Of a stretch of 57,526 nucleotides of DNA, positions 1 through 57,526 are shown piece by piece. The notes beneath the pieces are model-generated. The model had not been told where the DNA came from and did not search any database. It saw nothing but the letters and a program-made list of their open reading frames with translations. Made by a program: the position numbers and the translations under genes. The DNA lies in assembly GCA_038065615.1 (NCBI GenBank), contig JBBTQQ010000002.1, positions 1 to 57,526 on the forward strand. The letters run 5' to 3'. Position 1 is the stretch's first letter. Each line of letters begins with the position of its first letter. This DNA is from Patescibacteria group bacterium. Its GTDB lineage: Bacteria; Patescibacteriota; Doudnabacteria; UBA920; VMFF01.

Positions 1-67
1 CTGTCGGACTTGAACCGACCACCTGCGGTTTACGATACCGCTGCTCTACCAGATGAGCTAAGCCGGC
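1..67 (-). tRNA. tRNA-Thr (anticodon CGU), 3' end cut by window edge
   Basis: Reverse complement reads GCCGGCTTAGCTCATCTGGTAGAGCAGCGGTATCGTAAACCGCAGGTGGTCGGTTCAAGTCCGACAG. It has a D arm GCTC/GAGC, anticodon stem GCGGT/ACCGC with loop AT-CGT-AA, and T arm GTCGG-TTCAAGT-CCGAC. The backbone is nearly identical to the complete tRNA-Thr at 54521-54596. Confidence 0.85.
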
Positions 68-75
68 GTGTTGCT

Positions 76-111
76 CGGGCTCGCGTTGCTTAAAAAGCCA
101 ACGCGAGCCCG
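76..111. other. Strong GC hairpin 8 nt upstream of the tRNA-Thr(CGU) 5' end
   Basis: GGGCTCGCGTTG (77-88) pairs perfectly with CAACGCGAGCCC (99-110) around a 10-nt loop. There is no clear T-run on either side, so a terminator role is uncertain. Confidence 0.6.
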
Positions 112-116
112 TCTTG

Positions 117-410
117 CTACCACCCGAAGGAACTGAAACGCCTGGGCGAAGGATCAACTGGACGGAGCCGTCGCTGATACACCCTCTCAGCGCGAACATG
201 GTTCGCATCCAGACCTTTTGCCTCCTTCCCAGGCTTCGGCACATGGGCCGCGCATTTCACTCGCCACATGAAATCCGAGAAGAACAGAACTCCACCGACC
301 CAAACCATGCTCTCTCCAGGATGCATACGTTTCGCTCCCTTCAGGATCGACTTGCGACGCGCAATGTGTTTCTTGTCGATGTTCCGTTCGGGTTTCTTCG
401 TGTAATACAC
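117..410 (-). CDS. Candidate 97-aa basic protein inside GC-1 (speculative)
   Basis: GTG at 410 is preceded by AAGGGGGA with a 5-nt spacer. The ORF reads YYTKKPERNIDKKHIARRKSILKGAKRMHPGESMVWVGGVLFFSDFMW... and I recognise no family. The opposite strand is equally open, so this call is weak. Confidence 0.2.
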   Translation of the reverse strand: MYYTKKPERNIDKKHIARRKSILKGAKRMHPGESMVWVGGVLFFSDFMWRVKCAAHVPKPGKEAKGLDANHVRAERVYQRRLRPVDPSPRRFSSFGW

Positions 411-462
411 TGCTATCCCCCTTGTCCGTGTGGTCAACCTGAATCCTGCGATTGATGATGGT

Positions 463-491
463 ATGTTAAGGGGAAAATGAAATGAAGTCAA
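463..491 (-). promoter_or_regulatory. Candidate sigma70-like promoter reading into GC-1 and towards tRNA-Thr
   Basis: On the minus strand: TTGACT, 17 nt, TAACAT. Pattern match only. Confidence 0.25.
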
Positions 492-516
492 TAAAACCAC
501 TAGGGTTTGCTAGTGG
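491..516 (-). terminator. Rho-independent terminator of the LD-carboxypeptidase gene
   Basis: Hairpin CCACTAG-GGTTTG-CTAGTGG (497-516), followed on the minus strand by TTTTAT. Confidence 0.6.
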
Positions 517-4210: not shown

Positions 4211-4774
4211 TTAAATACTTCTTTTAGGCTTTATGAAAACCTTAGCAAACTCAGGTTGAGTGTATGCAGTCTTAGTGCTTGAATTTGCACCATACTCTAA
4301 ATGAACTTTCCAGATATAGTCTTTAACCTTTGAAGGATTAGGAATTGCTCTTAAAATTAAAGAATGATCTAACCCAACCACTTCTACTAAAACATCACCA
4401 TAATGAAAGAGGGTTGAGGAAACTCCTGTGGTTCTAAAACTAACATTTAAAATACGATCAAGGGGTGTTTCAATAACTGTTTTTTTAAACAACCCAGTAT
4501 GAACAATGTGTAAAAGTCTTTTTGAAGTAACTATATATACATTAACTGACCAAATGATAAAAGCATGCAACGCAAACATTGCAACAAGAACTGTCCATCC
4601 AATGAAAATCTGAGCGTGGGTGGTTGTTGAAAATATGAAGTCGTACTTTAAACCAAGGAACCAAGGAATGAAAATAAAAAGAAAAATCTGGAAAACTTTA
4701 GGCACAAGTGTAATCTCGTGCTTTCTGTAAACCGCTAAAAGTTGTTCATCACTATGAAGTTGGTGTGAAAACAT
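4211..4774 (-). CDS. Membrane protein with bacterial PH (YdbT-like, bPH_2) domain
   Basis: Two TM helices followed by KRLLHIVHTGLFKKTVIETPLDRILNVSF...GDVLVEVVG, which resembles the membrane-flanked PH fold family. Confidence 0.5.
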   Translation of the reverse strand: MFSHQLHSDEQLLAVYRKHEITLVPKVFQIFLFIFIPWFLGLKYDFIFSTTTHAQIFIGWTVLVAMFALHAFIIWSVNVYIVTSKRLLHIVHTGLFKKTVIETPLDRILNVSFRTTGVSSTLFHYGDVLVEVVGLDHSLILRAIPNPSKVKDYIWKVHLEYGANSSTKTAYTQPEFAKVFIKPKRSI

Positions 4775-4781
4775 TTTTGTT

Positions 4782-4886
4782 TCAATATACTGATGATTGA
4801 GAGAAAAGCATTAAAATCATGGACAAAACAACAAGGAATATGACTATGTTAACTACTATCTGAGCTTTTTTTCTGTTCCTAAACAT
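4782..4886 (-). CDS. Possible 34-aa single-TM micro-protein (below ORF-track cutoff)
   Basis: Hand translation gives MFRNRKKAQIVVNIVIFLVVLSMILMLFSQSSVY. It fills the gap between two genes, but I see no clear SD. Confidence 0.2.
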   Translation of the reverse strand: MFRNRKKAQIVVNIVIFLVVLSMILMLFSQSSVY

Positions 4887-4899
4887 ATATTTAAGTATA

Positions 4900-5460
4900 T
4901 CACAAAGCCTTCATTTTTTTAGCTGCAAGCAAAATACCTACCACAGTGCTAGTGAACGTAATCTTGCTACTTAGAATCATAGAAACAGCTTTTTTCAAAG
5001 GAACAAACTGCATTGAGCTGATTCCTTCTACAAACATATCAGAGCCAGAACCTTGTTTTTTTAAGTCCTGAGCTAAATATATATGGGTTTCTGAATTAGT
5101 ATGGCTTGGCATCGGGTTACAGATACATAACCTTGACCATTTTTTTGCAACCAAACCTGTTTCTTCAAAGAGTTCTTTTTTGGCTGTGAATAAAGGGGTA
5201 TGATTTTTTTCTACTCCGCCTCCTGGTAATTCCAAAAACTTTCTTTTGTAGACATACCTGTACTGTGAAATTAAACAAACTTCTTTTTTGGAATTAAGCG
5301 CAACAATTAAAACACCGTTTGTTAATTTAACGTGGGTGTACTCATGTTTTTTACCGTCTGGCAGATATATTTCATCAAGATAGTAAGTACGGAAAGGATG
5401 TTTATACAAAACTTTCCTAGAAACTCTTTGCCAAGCTTTGAATTTTGGTTTCTTTTTCAT
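4900..5460 (-). CDS. NUDIX hydrolase (ADP-ribose pyrophosphatase-like)
   Basis: Nudix box GGGVEKNHTPLFTAKKELFEETG. Confidence 0.85.
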   Translation of the reverse strand: MKKKPKFKAWQRVSRKVLYKHPFRTYYLDEIYLPDGKKHEYTHVKLTNGVLIVALNSKKEVCLISQYRYVYKRKFLELPGGGVEKNHTPLFTAKKELFEETGLVAKKWSRLCICNPMPSHTNSETHIYLAQDLKKQGSGSDMFVEGISSMQFVPLKKAVSMILSSKITFTSTVVGILLAAKKMKAL

Positions 5461-5462
5461 AG

Positions 5463-7247
5463 CTATTTCTTTAATACTGCAAGAAACGCTTCTTGAGGGA
5501 TTTCTACCCTGCCAACCATTTTCATTCGCTTTTTTCCTTTTTTTTGTTTGTTTAGAAGCTTCATCTTACGAGTAACGTCACCACCATAGAGATATCCAGT
5601 AACATCTTTACGGTATGCTTTGATTGTTTCGCGAGCAATGACCTTACCACCAATTGCTGCTTGTAATGCAATTTCAAACTGTTGTTTAGGAATTAAATCT
5701 TTCAACTTTGCTATTAAATCACGCCCATCTGATTCAGCTGTTGACCTATGAGCAATCATTGATAATGCTTCTACTGGCTCTCCGGAAACAAGAATATCGA
5801 TCTTAGAAAGCTCCCCTGTCCTGCTATCTATGAAATCATAATTTAAAGATGCATAACCAGATGAAACGCTTTTTAGCTTGTCATAGAAATCAACAATAAT
5901 ATTTGCAAGAGGCATTTCAAATTCCATTAAAACCCTGTCTTGTCCTAAATACTTAATGTCCTTGCTTATGGCTCTTCTTTGAATTGAAATATCAAGGATT
6001 GAACCAATGTATTCCGCAGGAGTTAATATTTCAACTTTCATCCAAGGTTCCTGAACACTTCCAATAATCGAAGGATCAGGCCATTCAGCAGGAGTATGAA
6101 TGACTTTTTCCTGTCCATTAGTTAATGTAATGCGATATGCAACGCTTGGCGCTGTTAAAACAAGGTCTAAACCATATTCCCTTGAAAGTCTTTCCTGAAC
6201 AATATCCATGTGCAAAAGACCCAAGAAACCTGTTCTAAAACCAAAACCAATTGAAGGAATGTTCTCTGGTTCAAAAGACAAAGCAGCGTCAGAGAGTTTT
6301 AATTTCTCCATAGCATCTCGCAACTCTGGATAGTCTTCTGCTGAAGTTGGAAAGATTGTTGCGTAAACCATTGGCTTAACCATCTTGTAACCAGGAAGCT
6401 GTTTTACATCTTTAAACTCTTTAAGAGTCACTGTATCTCCTACTCTAGCTTTTGAAACATCACGCAAACCTGTAACAATGTATCCTACTTCCCCAGTTTT
6501 AATTTCTGGTTGAGCTTCAAACTTAGGTCTGAAGAATCCTATCTCCAAAGCTTGTGCTTCAGTGTTTGTTCCAATCATCCTGATGGACTTGTTTTTTGTA
6601 ATACTCCCATCAAATATTCTAATGAAAGAAACAACACCTCTATGATTGTCATAGATTGAATCAAAAATCAAAGCTCTTAAAGGACTATCAGGATTTCCAG
6701 TTGGTGCCGGAACTCTTTCCACAACTGTTTTTAATATCTCATCAACTCCTTCACCGGTTTTTCCAGAAGCATACAAGAGTTCTTCTTCTTTAAATCCAAA
6801 TATCTTAATTATTTCCTCAGCAGTTTTCTTCCTATCAGAGTTTGGTAAATCAATCTTGTTAACCACTGGTATTATTTTCAAGTTATGCTCTAAAGCCAAA
6901 TGAACGTTTGCAAGTGTTTGCGCTTCAATCCCTTGCGTTGAATCAACAACTAAAATAGCCCCTTCGCAACAAGCGAGTGAACGAGAAACCTCATATGTAA
7001 AGTCAACGTGTCCTGGAGTATCAATTAAATTCAAAATATATTCTTTTCCATCCAGTTTGTAATCCATTCTGACAGGCTGCAACTTGATTGTAATCCCGCG
7101 TTCTCTTTCTAGATCCATCTGATCTAAAATCTGATCTTTCATTTCTCTCTTTGAAACAGTATTGGTAAATTCCAAAAGACGGTCTGCTAAAGTAGACTTT
7201 CCGTGGTCAATATGCGCAATAATGCAGAAATTACGTATGTTTTGCAT
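5463..7247 (-). CDS. lepA: Translation elongation factor 4 (LepA)
   Basis: N-terminal GTPase NFCIIAHIDHGKSTLADRLL, DTPGHVDF, NKIDL, and full-length LepA-like C-terminus. Confidence 0.95.
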   Translation of the reverse strand: MQNIRNFCIIAHIDHGKSTLADRLLEFTNTVSKREMKDQILDQMDLERERGITIKLQPVRMDYKLDGKEYILNLIDTPGHVDFTYEVSRSLACCEGAILVVDSTQGIEAQTLANVHLALEHNLKIIPVVNKIDLPNSDRKKTAEEIIKIFGFKEEELLYASGKTGEGVDEILKTVVERVPAPTGNPDSPLRALIFDSIYDNHRGVVSFIRIFDGSITKNKSIRMIGTNTEAQALEIGFFRPKFEAQPEIKTGEVGYIVTGLRDVSKARVGDTVTLKEFKDVKQLPGYKMVKPMVYATIFPTSAEDYPELRDAMEKLKLSDAALSFEPENIPSIGFGFRTGFLGLLHMDIVQERLSREYGLDLVLTAPSVAYRITLTNGQEKVIHTPAEWPDPSIIGSVQEPWMKVEILTPAEYIGSILDISIQRRAISKDIKYLGQDRVLMEFEMPLANIIVDFYDKLKSVSSGYASLNYDFIDSRTGELSKIDILVSGEPVEALSMIAHRSTAESDGRDLIAKLKDLIPKQQFEIALQAAIGGKVIARETIKAYRKDVTGYLYGGDVTRKMKLLNKQKKGKKRMKMVGRVEIPQEAFLAVLKK

Positions 7248-51859: not shown

Positions 51860-53119
51860 TTAAATATGCCTATGCATTTTTTTGTGCAAGACATCTGTTG
51901 CAACAACTTTACTAAAATCAAACTTTGATTTTAACGTGTACGCTATTCCAACCAAAATAATCATCAGGACTGACATAACAACATACGCAAACTTAATTCC
52001 TTGTGAGTCTATAATCACACCAACAATCAAAGGACCAACCAAGGCTCCAATATCATAGATAAGGGACATCATACTGCCTACCCTGCCAAAGTGTTCAGGC
52101 TGTGCGCATACTGTAATAAGCTCGTTATTTCCAACAGAAATTAACTCTAAAACAAGCCCAACACAGAAAGCAACAAGAGCCTGCCACCAGAAGGACCCAA
52201 TGAAGACTAAAGAAATAACCAATAATGCCATTGCAACAAGCCCATACGCGAAAGTCTTCAATCCCTGGTTATCAAACCACTTTCCAAGCCACCAACCAAA
52301 AATATATGGCAGAGCAAACATCACACCAATCAAAATTGCTTTACTTAAACCAGCGCCTTCTGTATATGCTTGAATTGGAAGAAAAAACGCCAACACTGAA
52401 CTAACCAAAGCAATGAAAAAATTAAACATTGCGACAGCTTTTAACTTCCAATCCCAACGGATGAGATCCCTAAAAGCTAAACCATAGACCTGATTAAAAT
52501 TCTCAGGTTCTCCACTTTGTTTAAATACCTCTGGAGTCTTCTGAAAATACCAGATGATGAAAAACGCAATCAAAGATGTTGGTGTAATAAGGAACAGGAG
52601 TTGATGGATAGAAAAATATTGAATAAGCCACATACCAGACAAAGCAGCAACAACCCACCAGAAATTAGCAATCGTATCAAAATACCCAAAAATCGTTGCC
52701 AGCTTACCATCAGAAGCATTTCTTCTGAAATATGTTCCCCTACCAACAGAATCCATTGCAAAAGTAATACCATTTAAGAAACGCCCCAACACAACAAACA
52801 CAACCATTCCTGTAACTCCAGCAAGAAAATATGATGCCCCAATAAAGGTGTACAACAAAAGCCCAACCAGAATTATACTGGTTGCTTTAAAACGATCAGC
52901 AGCCATCCCTATTATAGGGAGCGCAAGAATGAAAGAAACATCATAAGCAGCACGGATTAAACCAGCTTCAGCATAGTTTCTGGAAAAAGAAAAGATAAAC
53001 ACGGGGAGCAAAGATTCAGCAAATCCCCAACCAGCCCAACGAACAGCAGTTGCAAACGTAACAATTCTAATCCCTAATGGAGCTGAAAACTCAGAGAAAC
53101 CAAAAAGCCTTTTAATCAT
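51860..53119 (-). CDS. MFS transporter
   Basis: 419 aa, about 12 TM, with MFS-like GMAADRFK after TM2. Confidence 0.7.
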   Translation of the reverse strand: MIKRLFGFSEFSAPLGIRIVTFATAVRWAGWGFAESLLPVFIFSFSRNYAEAGLIRAAYDVSFILALPIIGMAADRFKATSIILVGLLLYTFIGASYFLAGVTGMVVFVVLGRFLNGITFAMDSVGRGTYFRRNASDGKLATIFGYFDTIANFWWVVAALSGMWLIQYFSIHQLLFLITPTSLIAFFIIWYFQKTPEVFKQSGEPENFNQVYGLAFRDLIRWDWKLKAVAMFNFFIALVSSVLAFFLPIQAYTEGAGLSKAILIGVMFALPYIFGWWLGKWFDNQGLKTFAYGLVAMALLVISLVFIGSFWWQALVAFCVGLVLELISVGNNELITVCAQPEHFGRVGSMMSLIYDIGALVGPLIVGVIIDSQGIKFAYVVMSVLMIILVGIAYTLKSKFDFSKVVATDVLHKKMHRHI

Positions 53120-53134
53120 ATTTTAGCAAAAAAA

Positions 53135-54100
53135 TTATTTCAAAACTCTAATTTTTTCAAAATTCTTACCGGTTAACCCTTTAATAGAAACGTTTACCCA
53201 TTCGTATTCTGAATTTGCTAACTGAGACGGTGAGAGTACATATTCTACGTATCCATCTTCCTTTTGTTTTAAAGCCCCTACCCCAACCCAAAATTTAGCC
53301 ACAGAAGTCTTTGTGGTTCCCACTGGAATACAGTTTCCTATCTGTGTGCTAAATACCAAAACCTTATCCCTATCTCTAGTGTATGGTCTTCTACGGCTCA
53401 CAGTATAGTAAGCTTGATGCATTAATTCTGTTTTTTCACGCCACAAAGGATCGCTATCTTGACCTGGTTTTAATCGGACATTCATCTCAACCATCCTTTT
53501 GCGTCTTTCATCTAAAGTTGGCAAACCACCCAACTGTTTTTCCATTAAACTAATTTTGTCTTTCAAATCTTCATCAAATTCTTCGGGTGTATAATGCGAA
53601 CCAACTGGGGTCAATGTAAACTTCATGTTTCCTGGCAAATAGCCACTAAGGGAACCAAGAAGTTCTCTAAAACCATTAGTATAACTTTCAGTCTCCGCCT
53701 TAGAAATATTATTCATTCTTTCAACGATTACATCATCAGAGCTAAAATCAAAAACCAACCCCGACTTATACACCTCCGCAATTGGCTTTAACCATTTTGC
53801 ATAGTACATCAGTGTAAATAGCTCTGCCCAGTCAACATCTGGAGATTCATCTAAACGCCATAACTTGTAACCACCAAAAACAAAAACGAATTGGATAGGT
53901 TCATTTTTACTAACGCTCCTATCTATCGCCTCTCTTACTTGTTTTTGGTACTCATCTGAAACACTAAACTTTCTGAACTTTTTAGACATGATTGTCTTAA
54001 AAATAAACTCAGAAAGCTGATCTTGTGATGAAAAACTCATTTCTAATTTTTCAGGTTTCAGCTGTTGTAATCTTTTCTCAATAAATTCTTGTGGTGTCAT
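53135..54100 (-). CDS. Hypothetical protein (321 aa); weak resemblance to Dit1/PvcA-type enzymes
   Basis: Clean ORF. The segment PIQFVFVFGGYKLWRLDESPDVDWAELFTLMYY...VYKSGLVFDFSSDD loosely recalls the Dit1/PvcA core pattern (from memory, unverified). Confidence 0.5.
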   Translation of the reverse strand: MTPQEFIEKRLQQLKPEKLEMSFSSQDQLSEFIFKTIMSKKFRKFSVSDEYQKQVREAIDRSVSKNEPIQFVFVFGGYKLWRLDESPDVDWAELFTLMYYAKWLKPIAEVYKSGLVFDFSSDDVIVERMNNISKAETESYTNGFRELLGSLSGYLPGNMKFTLTPVGSHYTPEEFDEDLKDKISLMEKQLGGLPTLDERRKRMVEMNVRLKPGQDSDPLWREKTELMHQAYYTVSRRRPYTRDRDKVLVFSTQIGNCIPVGTTKTSVAKFWVGVGALKQKEDGYVEYVLSPSQLANSEYEWVNVSIKGLTGKNFEKIRVLK

Positions 54101-54105
54101 GATTT

Positions 54106-54179
54106 TGGAGATGTGGGCAGGATTTAAACCTACCTATTCCACCTTGCGGGTAGACGCCTAGACACTCGGCCACCACATC
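54106..54179 (-). tRNA. tRNA-Cys (anticodon GCA), non-canonical loops
   Basis: Reverse complement GATGTGGTGGCCGAGTGTCTAGGCGTCTACCCGCAAGGTGGAATAGGTAGGTTTAAATCCTGCCCACATCTCCA. Anticodon stem TCTAC/GTGGA with loop CC-GCA-AG, discriminator U73 as expected for tRNA-Cys, and encoded CCA. Oddities: C at position 33, no GG in the D loop, and T loop TTTAAAT. Confidence 0.7.
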
Positions 54180-54224
54180 AGAATAAGCATAACAAAAAAC
54201 ACTAGCTATCGCTAATGTTCTTTG

Positions 54225-54298
54225 TGGCAGGGGTGCTAGGAGTTGGACCCAGTCTAAATCTTTTGGAGAGATTTGTGCGACCGTTACACTACACCCCC
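54225..54298 (-). tRNA. tRNA-Trp (anticodon CCA)
   Basis: Reverse complement GGGGGTGTAGTGTAACGGTCGCACAAATCTCTCCAAAAGATTTAGACTGGGTCCAACTCCTAGCACCCCTGCCA. Anticodon stem AATCT/AGATT with loop CT-CCA-AA and encoded CCA. The T loop reads TCCAACT, which is unusual at position 55. Confidence 0.8.
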
Positions 54299-54520: not shown

Positions 54521-54596
54521 TGGAGCCGGCTGTCGGACTCGAACCGACCACCTACGGTTTACAAAACCGTTGCTCTACCGGATGAGCTAAGCCGGC
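54521..54596 (-). tRNA. tRNA-Thr (anticodon UGU)
   Basis: Reverse complement GCCGGCTTAGCTCATCCGGTAGAGCAACGGTTTTGTAAACCGTAGGTGGTCGGTTCGAGTCCGACAGCCGGCTCCA. Anticodon stem ACGGT/ACCGT with loop TT-TGT-AA, T arm GTCGG-TTCGAGT-CCGAC, encoded CCA. Confidence 0.92.
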
Positions 54597-54664
54597 AAGA
54601 GATAAAATTAACTATTAAAATTTAACATAAAGACCGTAAAAAGTAAAGGGCCTTGGGTTGCTAG

Positions 54665-54950
54665 ATATGAATCCAGCGCGCCAAGGCACCTTTGCTTGTA
54701 TGGTTCTTGCGTTTCTTCATCAATGTTCTGATGGTATACGCAAAACCAGATATCTTTCCTCCTGTTTTAACTACCGTTGAAACTGTGCGAATCGAGCGCC
54801 CTGCGACGCACAACCACACGGGTGCGCTCGTGCATGATCAGTGTACGCTCGTTGTACCCCTGGATATCGTGTACAGCGCTGTACTCGAACCCAGGGTGCT
54901 GCAGGAGCGACGAATCAGGCTCGACGCGGTAATGACTGACCGGCTAACCC
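54665..54950. other. GC-rich patch GC-5 (gene-fragment-like, no complete ORF)
   Basis: Line 54781-54840 counts 62% G+C. The minus strand has a 58-codon stop-free frame (54767-54943) with no start codon, ending ...HERTRVVVRRRALDSHSFNGS*. An orphan AGGAGG (54758-54763) follows that stop. There is a perfect 14-bp palindrome GTACAGCGCTGTAC (54871-54884) and a 7-bp stem CGAGCGC/GCGCTCG (54792-54830). Confidence 0.6.
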
Positions 54951-57526
54951 AACTTCAATTACAGAACTAAGATTAACGCCTGATAAAACATACTCCGCTA
55001 TCTTATTTGTCGGTGCGCTTAAAATACCATCCCAACCTGAATCACCAGTTATAACTAAACCAGCAGGTAAAGTAACATTAACGTCTCCACTATCACCAGT
55101 TGAAGAATTGATAGTTAATTCTGCTGATGTTGTTACAGTCTTGTTATCTCCAGAAGTTTCTAACAAAGCAGCAAAGTTAATCGTTGGTTCTGTAACACTT
55201 TCAGGAATCGTAATAGTGGCATCTTCTGAGTTATCTCCAACAACAACTTCAGTGTGAGAACTGTCTAAATCAGTATCAGCGTCTAGAATAACTTGCTGTG
55301 CTTCAAGAGGAAAGACATGAACTAATCTAGTTACCCTCGCCGCTAGTCCTGCTGCATTAGTAACGTCATATGTTACGGTAGAGTCACCTGGGTCATCTGT
55401 GTTATCAATGTTATTAGTAACCATTGAAGTAGTTAAATCACCATCCACAGGATCAGATGCTGTTGCACCTAAATCTGTGTATACACTACCCACATAAATA
55501 ATTAATTCACTTGGACCATTCATTGTGATTACTGGAGTTGAGCTGGTAATTGCGTTGCTATAATCTACTGTTTCTCCTGAAATGACAGAGGTGAAATCTG
55601 GACTTACACTACCCCACCAATTATTTTGTGCATCGATTGAAATACTGGATACTCCTGTCCAATTACCATAACCTGTACCACTTGGTGTTCCATTCGTTCC
55701 ACCTATAGCAATAGCTTTGCCTGTGACGTTAAAGGAATTGTAATTAATATTAAAGGTTCCGCTAGACATACGATCAAAAATAAAACCATCTGATGTATTT
55801 GTGATTGTGTTATGTTGACCTGTTAAAACAAGTGGTAAGTTCTGAGAAGTAAGAGCCGCGTAAAACTTGTTTCTAATTTTGTTATTATTAAAAACCAAAT
55901 TTGAAGTTCGGTTAGACGAACCGATCAACTGCGAGCCGTGTCCTCGGTCACTTCTACTTGCTAAACCATCTGTATCAACTGTGTTGTTAGTAAAGTTTAC
56001 ATCGCCAGCATCCCAAGCATTTAAACCCCAACCATATGCGCCATAAATAGTGTTACCTGAAGCTGTACCGTTTGCACCAAAGAAATAATAGATTCCATAG
56101 AACAAGCTGTTCCAAAAAGTACCAGCAATAGGTCTAGTTGTAGTACCAGCATAAATAATGTTATTAGTAACATCTACATTTGGATGATACGTACCGGTTG
56201 GTAATATTCTGTCTAAACCAAGAATATGTACACCAAAAGCAGATCCGTTCAAACGAAGAGTATTACCGCTTACTGTCACTGTAGCCTGCCCTATAATCTT
56301 AATTGCACTAAGTGCATCTAGGGTATTTTCCCCATCAACAAGGTTATTACTTATTAATATGCCTGTAAGCGCAACAGGAGTCGCACCGCCTACATGATCT
56401 ACTAAGATTCCTACTCCAGAGTACGGCGATGAAAAAGACGCTAATATCTGATTATTAGCTGTCACATGAAAATTCTGAAAAGTGACATTTGAAGCAGTAA
56501 TTCGCACAATTGCCTTATTTTTGCCACGAGTTGAACTACTCCCTGCTAAATATACTGATTGGTCTGAGACTGTCATCAAACTTGGGTCAGGAGCTTGGAT
56601 TGTTGTTGAACTAGTACCTGAACCTGTAACCGTCAACTCCTTATCAATATTAACTTGTTCAATATATGTCCCTGTTCCGACTTTAATAGTATCTCCAGCC
56701 GTGGCACGAGTAATGCTTTCCTGAATATCAGTTCCTATCATTCGAAGATAAACTTCTTTCAAAGGATAGTTAATGGATTCATATGTAAGATCATTAACCC
56801 AACCCAATCGTTCAAAAGCATTCATGCGTGCATCATTGTCAGGGGTAAGAGTTAATACAGCTTTATCAAATGTATTGTTAGCAAGGAAACCTGTCCAATA
56901 ACCAGCAGGGTTAGCATAATCACTACCACGAGCAATAATTTGAAAAGCATTATCATTAAAAGTATTGCCAGAAATAGTAACATCACCGATTGGTTGTGTT
57001 GTCCAACCAGAACCAGTCATGCCCATCAAGCTTACAGCACCCCAGTCAGTTATATGTTCAATTAAGTTGCCGGTAATATTTCTTCCTGAAGCTGGACCAG
57101 TCTGTCCAACACCATTAGTTATAGTGATCTCACCGTAGAGAAATTGGTTGTTCTGAATCGAAAAATTATTAACATGCACACCGCCACGCTCGTCACTTAA
57201 ATAGAGACCAGAATATCCGAGTTCTATATTGTCTACAACAGAGTTTTTTAAAGTAAAGTTTTCCCCTGTAGCAAAAACATTTTTATTTCCACCAACCGGT
57301 AAATTAGCTAATTCAAACCTCAAACCGCTAATAGTAACATTGTCACCTGTGATGACAGTGTCTCCTAATGATGCATCACGTTGTATTGCTTTAACAGTCG
57401 CAACAACACTTGCACGATTAGTTATTGGGTTACCAGAACCATCTACGCCTTGAATTGTCAATCCGTTTTTAAGTAAGTTCAACAAGTAAGCGCAACACCG
57501 TAAGGGTAAACTTAGAACATGAAGCA
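54915..57526 (-). CDS. Large secreted/surface protein with right-handed parallel beta-helix repeats and a C-terminal Ig-like domain; N-terminus outside window
   Basis: Repeated N/G/T-rich beta-helix-type turns (NNxF..NxI...GxxI). An Ig-like segment PVITMNGPSELIIYVGSVYTDLGATASDPVDGDLT resembles DUF5011-type domains. The frame stays open from the track's TTG (57485) to the window edge. The last roughly 10 codons and the TGA lie in GC-5. Confidence 0.75.
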   Translation of the reverse strand, partial: LHVLSLPLRCCAYLLNLLKNGLTIQGVDGSGNPITNRASVVATVKAIQRDASLGDTVITGDNVTISGLRFELANLPVGGNKNVFATGENFTLKNSVVDNIELGYSGLYLSDERGGVHVNNFSIQNNQFLYGEITITNGVGQTGPASGRNITGNLIEHITDWGAVSLMGMTGSGWTTQPIGDVTISGNTFNDNAFQIIARGSDYANPAGYWTGFLANNTFDKAVLTLTPDNDARMNAFERLGWVNDLTYESINYPLKEVYLRMIGTDIQESITRATAGDTIKVGTGTYIEQVNIDKELTVTGSGTSSTTIQAPDPSLMTVSDQSVYLAGSSSTRGKNKAIVRITASNVTFQNFHVTANNQILASFSSPYSGVGILVDHVGGATPVALTGILISNNLVDGENTLDALSAIKIIGQATVTVSGNTLRLNGSAFGVHILGLDRILPTGTYHPNVDVTNNIIYAGTTTRPIAGTFWNSLFYGIYYFFGANGTASGNTIYGAYGWGLNAWDAGDVNFTNNTVDTDGLASRSDRGHGSQLIGSSNRTSNLVFNNNKIRNKFYAALTSQNLPLVLTGQHNTITNTSDGFIFDRMSSGTFNINYNSFNVTGKAIAIGGTNGTPSGTGYGNWTGVSSISIDAQNNWWGSVSPDFTSVISGETVDYSNAITSSTPVITMNGPSELIIYVGSVYTDLGATASDPVDGDLTTSMVTNNIDNTDDPGDSTVTYDVTNAAGLAARVTRLVHVFPLEAQQVILDADTDLDSSHTEVVVGDNSEDATITIPESVTEPTINFAALLETSGDNKTVTTSAELTINSSTGDSGDVNVTLPAGLVITGDSGWDGILSAPTNKIAEYVLSGVNLSSVIEVGLAGQSLPRRA

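Follow-up and report, generated by a model that had tools for sequence, protein, structure and literature searches.

How a GC-rich block came to lie on the 5′ side of a tRNA-Thr gene, and to form the end of the reading frame of a large surface protein, is the question raised by this locus of a Doudnabacteria genome. The window (the whole stretch of DNA that was analyzed, 57,526 nucleotides) is the complete contig C2 of the MAG G000, which has 13 contigs, 724,694 bp, 37% G+C and a completeness of 100% by markers. The block, named GC-5, has a G+C content of 58.2% over 54767-54943 and 61.7% over 54781-54840, against 37% over 54951-55250 and 37.1% in the whole window. A first-pass annotation had read it as a junction left by insertion or illegitimate recombination of foreign DNA, possibly by a route that targets tRNA-Thr genes. 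Here we compared the locus with that of its relatives, and we conclude with a probability of about 0.86 that GC-5 is a deletion scar, in which the tail of a gene (gene C) is fused to a surface-protein gene truncated by about 238 residues, and not newly inserted DNA.

All features listed in that annotation were found in place. The tRNA-Thr(UGU) gene (54521-54596, minus strand) was identified by ARAGORN and by the Rfam tRNA model (67.8 bits) and does not vary among six genomes; the window opens with a partial tRNA (1-67), tRNA-Thr(CGU), which is 91% identical to it. The beta-helix/Ig-like surface-protein gene (54915-57526, minus strand; Pfam Beta_helix and Bact_surface_Ig-like) has its 5′ end off the contig and reads as truncated at its 3′ end; its ORF (54915-57524/57485) ends in ...SSVIEVGLAGQSLPRRA, also given as ...VIEVGLAGQSLPRRA, before the stop. 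Another minus-strand frame, 54767-54943, is open for 58 codons without a start (PVSHYRVEPDSS...SHSFNGS and stop), and its sole ATG is internal and yields a 22-aa ORF. The 19-codon ATG ORF that had been noted further downstream is the tail of a listed ORF at 54661-54819.

The origin of the start-less frame was traced through a DNA search of 40 relatives. The stretch 54225-54922/54930 was matched at 83-97% nucleotide identity in all four same-genus genomes (G001-G004), each match adjoining the same rpmG and tRNA-Thr(UGU) genes, and the block is present at 92% identity in a further MAG, GCA_054640895.1. In each of the five congeners examined, the DNA immediately upstream of tRNA-Thr(UGU) is occupied by a GC-rich operon, A-B-C, which encodes proteins of 95 aa (A), 98 aa (B) and 82-90 aa (C). 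It is organized with three Shine-Dalgarno sites, an ATGA stop/start overlap, a downstream terminator and a structured 3′UTR, and in the relatives it has its own terminator and promoter region upstream. The start-less frame of the window corresponds to the C-terminal part (approximately 56 codons) of gene C. Its earlier interpretation as the 3′ end of a truncated gene is therefore borne out by the intact gene C found at the same place in the five relatives. The remnant (54767-54930, minus strand) comprises the last 54-56 or so codons and the stop, has neither start nor RBS, aligns with the C-terminus of protein C and is recognized by the protein C HMM at E = 7e-35.

Gene C is taken as a real gene because pN/pS is 0.22-0.37 among its intact copies, with near-saturated synonymous divergence; the alignment of protein C from five relatives contains 28 invariant columns. 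Between the remnant and the copy of G003 there are seven nonsynonymous and three synonymous changes (pN/pS 0.70, from counts too small for significance). The claim that the DNA is compositionally foreign also holds, as GC3 is 0.69 in the remnant and 0.24-0.31 in the neighbouring genes; it is 0.53 in A, 0.59 in B and 0.65 in C, and the GC-richness is a property of the genus-confined A-B-C operon. None of the three proteins had a match in Pfam, PHROG or PADLOC (PADLOC-DB: none at E <= 1). AlphaFold predicts protein C to be a helical hairpin (pLDDT 84), and a fold search of the PDB gave no match at E <= 0.001; the model of protein A (pLDDT 59) was too poor for such a search. C and A each form five clusters among 5.8 billion proteins, all of them from close Doudnabacteria-type relatives; a profile search of 1.84 billion representatives gave two matches, and homologues of A or C were found in none of the 141 other genomes of the class. 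Judged by these sequence searches, A and C are orphans confined to this genus. Searching the literature for GC-rich cassettes or tRNA-Thr slots in Doudnabacteria returned nothing.

The operon is itself internally deleted in two of the five congener copies. In G002 (locus L016) an independent deletion of 130 nt runs from the end of A into the start of B, and in G001 (locus L013) independent deletions of 194 and 124 nt have removed B.

The other side of the junction was resolved with the three relatives in which the beta-helix gene precedes A-B-C, namely G001, G004 and GCA_054640895.1. Over its last 127 native residues, the surface protein aligns at 73% identity with residues 670-796 of the G004 protein (1034 aa), which runs 238 residues beyond the aligned part. 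In the relatives the protein reads ...IEVGLT(D/N)QSL, then TFNKAVRLLFAGK... (GLT(D/N)QSLTFNKAV...), and continues for 238 more residues up to the end ...SVYP(T/I)GEVIN. Since the GLAGQSL of the window aligns with this GLT(D/N)QSL and the relatives run on for 238 residues, LAGQSL is native and only P-R-R-A-stop (54915-54929, minus strand) is new, an out-of-frame reading of the gene C remnant. The orthologues accordingly do not share the LAGQSLPRRA tail. The boundary had been drawn as G|LAGQSLPRRA, about 10 codons from the stop; the homology switch lies at 54928-54930, only 3-4 codons from it, so that the block does give the protein its stop and P-R-R-A, but not some ten codons.

Homology to gene C of G003 (97% identity) stops at 54930, and from approximately 54930-54931 onward the sequence matches the surface-protein gene of G001, G004 and GCA_054640895.1. 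As seen in the relatives, both parental sides share GGT and an imperfect GGTnAAG, and the junction at 54928-54930 (GGT on the plus strand, ACC on the coding strand) would represent a 3-nt microhomology. The sharing of GGT or GGTnAAG fits illegitimate recombination or replication slippage at microhomology, as far as the compared sequences can tell, and this part of the earlier interpretation, an illegitimate-recombination junction, agrees with the clean switch of homology at 54928-54931.

The direction of the event is given by the amount of DNA. Between the points that are adjacent in the window, the relatives with the same two genes have 1217 bp (G001), 1552 bp (G004) and 1554 bp (GCA_054640895.1); G000 has 1217-1554 bp less, and the event is therefore a deletion. 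Gene A, which is present in all four congeners with whole genomes and in the contig of GCA_054640895.1, is absent from the whole of G000, and the missing middle of the C-terminal module of the surface protein has no copy elsewhere in G000, so the DNA was lost and not moved. An intact homologue thus stands at the orthologous position in relatives, and about 35 N-terminal codons of C, its start and RBS, and genes A and B are gone from G000. The undeleted ancestor is represented by relatives of 73-97% identity, from which the deletion size and the microhomology are estimated. In G003, the genome closest to G000 in the block, no beta-helix gene occupies this place, and the history therefore also includes gain or loss of that gene.

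The cut lies within a conserved C-terminal module of the surface protein, with the loss of a Gly/Pro linker and a terminal domain of about 110 aa. This lost C-terminal domain has no Pfam match, and its PDB sequence matches are not significant (lamin tail, E about 0.7). Distant relatives of the terminal domain (approximately 30% identity) are found in two other large secreted proteins of G000 (C5:63271-63609 and C3:24992-25282), near the N-terminus in one and near the C-terminus in the other. The ORF of the surface protein is open for 869 codons, and the gene may still function rather than be dying; attachment or function of the truncated protein would probably be altered.

The rest of the block, between the stop of gene C and the tRNA, was analyzed for structure and conservation. 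Conservation over 54641-54766 exceeds that of the coding part. A long hairpin in this stretch (54641-54697, minus strand; 21 pairs, 98-100% paired in six genomes) is followed by UUUUUA and, with the hairpin and U-run of an intrinsic (Rho-independent) terminator, is the predicted terminator of the A-B-C operon; a simple terminator scan missed it owing to its loop and bulges. A second conserved 3′UTR hairpin (GGUUUUGCGU...CAUCA/UGAUG...ACGCAAGAACC; 54702-54747, minus strand) was found from folding and the six-genome comparison. The 143-nt stretch 54628-54770, terminator hairpin included, folds at -47.5 kcal/mol (z = -5.1 relative to shuffles), and the 3′UTR structure is 96% paired over the six genomes. 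In Rfam the conserved 3′UTR had no match (best PrrB_RsmZ, 13.8 bits against a gathering score of 44, E = 0.66).

Next to the terminator lies a putative tRNA-Thr(UGU) promoter (54619-54647, minus strand), assigned from its sequence, with the -35 element TTTACT (54642-54647), a 17-nt spacer, and TGn with the -10 element TAAATT (54619-54624). It was not listed by a simple consensus promoter scan and is invariant within the genus, where its -35 overlaps the 3′ arm of the terminator. Family-wide homology with other genera starts at the -35 of this promoter, as TTGACA...TGTTAAAT, under the pattern TT(G/T)AC(A/T)-17-TGnTAAAT. The AGGAGG (54758-54763, minus strand), which had appeared to be an orphan, is kept in all six genomes and belongs to the conserved structured 3′UTR, which with its terminator abuts the tRNA promoter. 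The codon after it is ATG in G001 and G004 and ATA in G000 and three others; a small ORF starting there was rejected, as ATG is present in only two of six genomes and a 1-nt indel shifts the frames. The perfect 14-nt palindrome GTACAGCGCTGTAC is indeed present at 54871-54884, common only to G003 and G000, within the gene C codons (E)YSAV(H), and any special meaning given to it is not upheld, seven such palindromes occurring in the window against about 3.5 expected under uniform composition.

These data bear on the possibility that the block is still functional, i.e. that a short protein is made from the remnant frame or from a 92-aa plus-strand ORF, or a small RNA from the 3′UTR. We regard this as very unlikely, even though the higher conservation of 54641-54766, a fold far better than that of shuffled sequences and two compensatory changes speak for it. 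The remnant frame lacks both a start codon and a Shine-Dalgarno site, the plus-strand ORF (54692-54970) was rejected as coding because it is simply the antisense of gene C, the frame of the small ORF behind AGGAGG is not conserved, and the 3′UTR did not reach the Rfam gathering score. The covariation support for the 54702-54747 hairpin is weak, consisting of two compensatory pair changes in its inner 5-bp stem among six sequences; 20 of 500 shuffles score equally well. A role of the 3′UTR as terminator or insulator belongs to the explanation by deletion and does not count for the rival.

A recent insertion or recombination of foreign DNA at the 5′ flank of tRNA-Thr, by a mechanism that targets the 5′ sides of such genes, is slightly less credible again, and a recent insertion is already largely refuted. 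The contrast of composition described above speaks for it, as does the GC-rich block on the 5′ side of both tRNA-Thr loci visible in the contig. However, all five congeners have the orthologous block at this same position (83-97% identity), and G000 has less DNA here than its relatives, not more, so the proposed insertion in G000 has to be given up. The second block, GC-1 (window 68-500), is likewise an old resident, kept at 68-91% identity beside tRNA-Thr(CGU) in all four congeners, which counts against targeting; G003 has an extra 1.28 kb or so between GC-1 and the next gene. With both blocks resident in the congeners, any acquisition predates the genus. Syntenic homologues of A-B-C in sister genera were found in none of the 141 genomes.

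The targeting of tRNA-Thr 5′ flanks also fails on gene order. In G003-like contigs the order is tRNA-Thr(GGU), A-B-C, tRNA-Thr(UGU), and in G004 it is tRNA-Tyr, tRNA-Thr(GGU), surface-protein gene, A-B-C, tRNA-Thr(UGU); in both, the slot begins directly 3′ of tRNA-Thr(GGU), and it is the 3′ flank of that gene as much as the 5′ flank of tRNA-Thr(UGU). Apart from A, B and C, the slot contains at most the beta-helix gene, and no integrase or recombinase. No att-like direct repeat was seen, and the repeats located in a search of the intact G003-like slot were limited to the pair of complete tRNA-Thr genes, which are 71% alike, and to short repeats at chance level. Of the approximately 40 GC-rich islands of G000, one or two lie within 250 bp of a tRNA, where random placement gives 2.2, and across the genome GC-rich blocks are thus not enriched near tRNAs.

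What remains of the targeting idea is that the spacer between tRNA-Thr(GGU) and tRNA-Thr(UGU) is a variable slot across the family, with some GC-rich fillings. Across the family, and in a single genome of a sister family, its length ranges from 23 nt to 4.8 kb: 23 nt in G005, 346 nt in G008, 704 nt with a GC-rich 101-aa ORF in G009, 1.2 kb in G003-like contigs, 4.4 kb in G004 and 4.8 kb in G007, and, measured from tRNA-Tyr to tRNA-Thr(UGU), 561 nt and GC-rich in G006 and 848 nt in G010 (the sister family). In the sister genus represented by G007 (locus L029, 2958-7755) the slot has several GC-rich ORFs (G+C 0.51-0.60) beside AT-rich ones, all unrelated to A and C. The tRNA-Tyr and tRNA-Thr(GGU) genes, which lie just upstream of the slot in relatives, are missing from the G000 assembly despite its 100% marker completeness, and they probably lie in the gap past the contig end.

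The islands of G000 (about 40, each of at least 220 bp and at least 53% G+C, 24.9 kb in total) are spread over all contigs, and most have long open frames. They are mutually unrelated except for a tandem pair, C6:3301-4332 and 4500-5609, which is 74% identical, and GC-5 as a repeated mobile element was rejected after all-against-all blastn and tblastx showed none of them to be similar to GC-5. Near the block, the strains of SRR32696708 and SRR32696707 (loci L046 and L049) are 100% identical to the window over 53001-54230, and at their positions 78-823 (window 54222-54230) they carry a self-contained GC-rich cassette of 745 bp between tRNA-Trp and tRNA-Cys, with a GAAGGAGG RBS, a 109-aa helical ORF and a hairpin on each side. 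This cassette is absent at the G000 locus and has no copy elsewhere in G000.

That the junction is an assembly artefact, a chimeric join or collapsed repeat in a MAG of 13 contigs whose ends lie within repeats (55-mer overlaps), is hardly conceivable, since it is internal to the contig, its parental sides share only about 3 nt, far under the 55-nt overlaps of the contig ends, and it recurs identically in three independent assemblies of different samples. Among the matches listed, three contigs that were assembled separately from different Hainich groundwater samples and wells, ERZ1292624 (325 kb, coverage 71), ERZ1292628 and ERZ1292636, match the window at 100% identity over 4526 bp, the junction 61-mer included, and the deleted form is the only one seen in the assemblies of this strain that reach the site (wells H41 and H32). 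As for the ends themselves, the end of C8 and the start of C2 share an identical 55-mer inside tRNA-Thr(CGU) (window 1-55), which makes these contigs neighbours. C7 and C10 both start with a 55-mer that is identical in the reverse complement of the C2 end (57472-57526); the 5′ end of the beta-helix gene thus holds a three-way repeat, where every assembly breaks at the same base.

Under the deletion explanation, the following history may be proposed. The ancestral order on the minus strand, as shown by the relatives, would be tRNA-Tyr, tRNA-Thr(GGU), beta-helix gene, A-B-C, tRNA-Thr(UGU) and rpmG. In the lineage of G000 a single deletion of approximately 1.2-1.55 kb, which probably originated by illegitimate recombination or replication slippage at the 3-nt (imperfectly about 8-nt) microhomology, would have removed the last 238 or so codons of the surface protein, the intergenic promoter, A, B and the first 35 or so codons of C. 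What would be left over is about 56 codons of C as an untranslated pseudogene fragment, followed by the 3′UTR hairpin and terminator of the operon. The frame of the surface protein would then enter the remnant out of frame, read four codons (P-R-R-A) and stop, and its mRNA presumably has the remnant as 3′UTR and the old operon terminator as its end. The overlap of the terminator's 3′ arm and T-run with the -35 of the tRNA-Thr(UGU) promoter is the probable reason why this end has been kept. Seen over the genus, A-B-C would have been gained before the genus arose and eroded independently three times since (in G000, G001 and G002).

In annotation, 54767-54930 should be given as a gene remnant, and the beta-helix gene as C-terminally truncated by about 238 residues with four out-of-frame end codons, not as a gene "rewritten" by foreign DNA. 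In a natural groundwater population, an accessory operon has been lost and a large surface protein reshaped through a deletion, and a dated example is added to the unexplained set of GC-rich orphan cassettes in an AT-rich Patescibacteria lineage. A wider idea, which we put forward as doubtful, is that the inter-tRNA-Thr spacer is a standing hotspot of gene gain and loss in Doudnabacteria, where self-contained GC-rich orphan cassettes, all equipped with a promoter, Shine-Dalgarno sites, a structured 3′UTR and a terminator of their own, arrive, persist without compositional amelioration and erode by small deletions, with no recognisable integrase. If true, GC-5 would be one erosion stage of such a cassette, and ultra-small bacteria would acquire genes, or give rise to new ones, by a route not yet described, while some force would keep these genes GC-rich, e.g. 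selection or GC-biased conversion at recombination hotspots.

Among known systems, the A-B-C operon resembles phage 'morons' in being a small unit with its own promoter, Shine-Dalgarno sites and terminator, of atypical composition, placed between unrelated genes; it differs from them in having no phage context and no PHROG match and in consisting of three overlapping genes instead of one. The slot resembles tRNA-associated genomic islands and integrative elements in being variable, atypical DNA beside tRNA genes, which in the relatives starts right after the 3′ end of a tRNA, tRNA-Thr(GGU). Unlike them, it has no integrase and no duplicated tRNA 3′ segment or att repeat, its cargo is only about 1 kb and is bounded by the promoter of a second tRNA gene, and its contents change from one genus to another and, within the genus, are inherited stably.

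Gene remnants (pseudogene fragments) from microhomology-mediated deletion have been described in reduced bacterial genomes. Like these, GC-5 is the 3′ part of a gene, without its start, whose intact form is found in relatives, with a clean breakpoint of few shared bases and a neighbouring gene fused to an out-of-frame stop. The feature is in this sense real but ordinary, a gene remnant with a retained terminator and a truncated surface protein. It is unlike the typical deletion remnant in that the lost gene came from a compositionally foreign, genus-only orphan operon and in that the same event also cut short a large surface protein, the rest of whose frame is still open.
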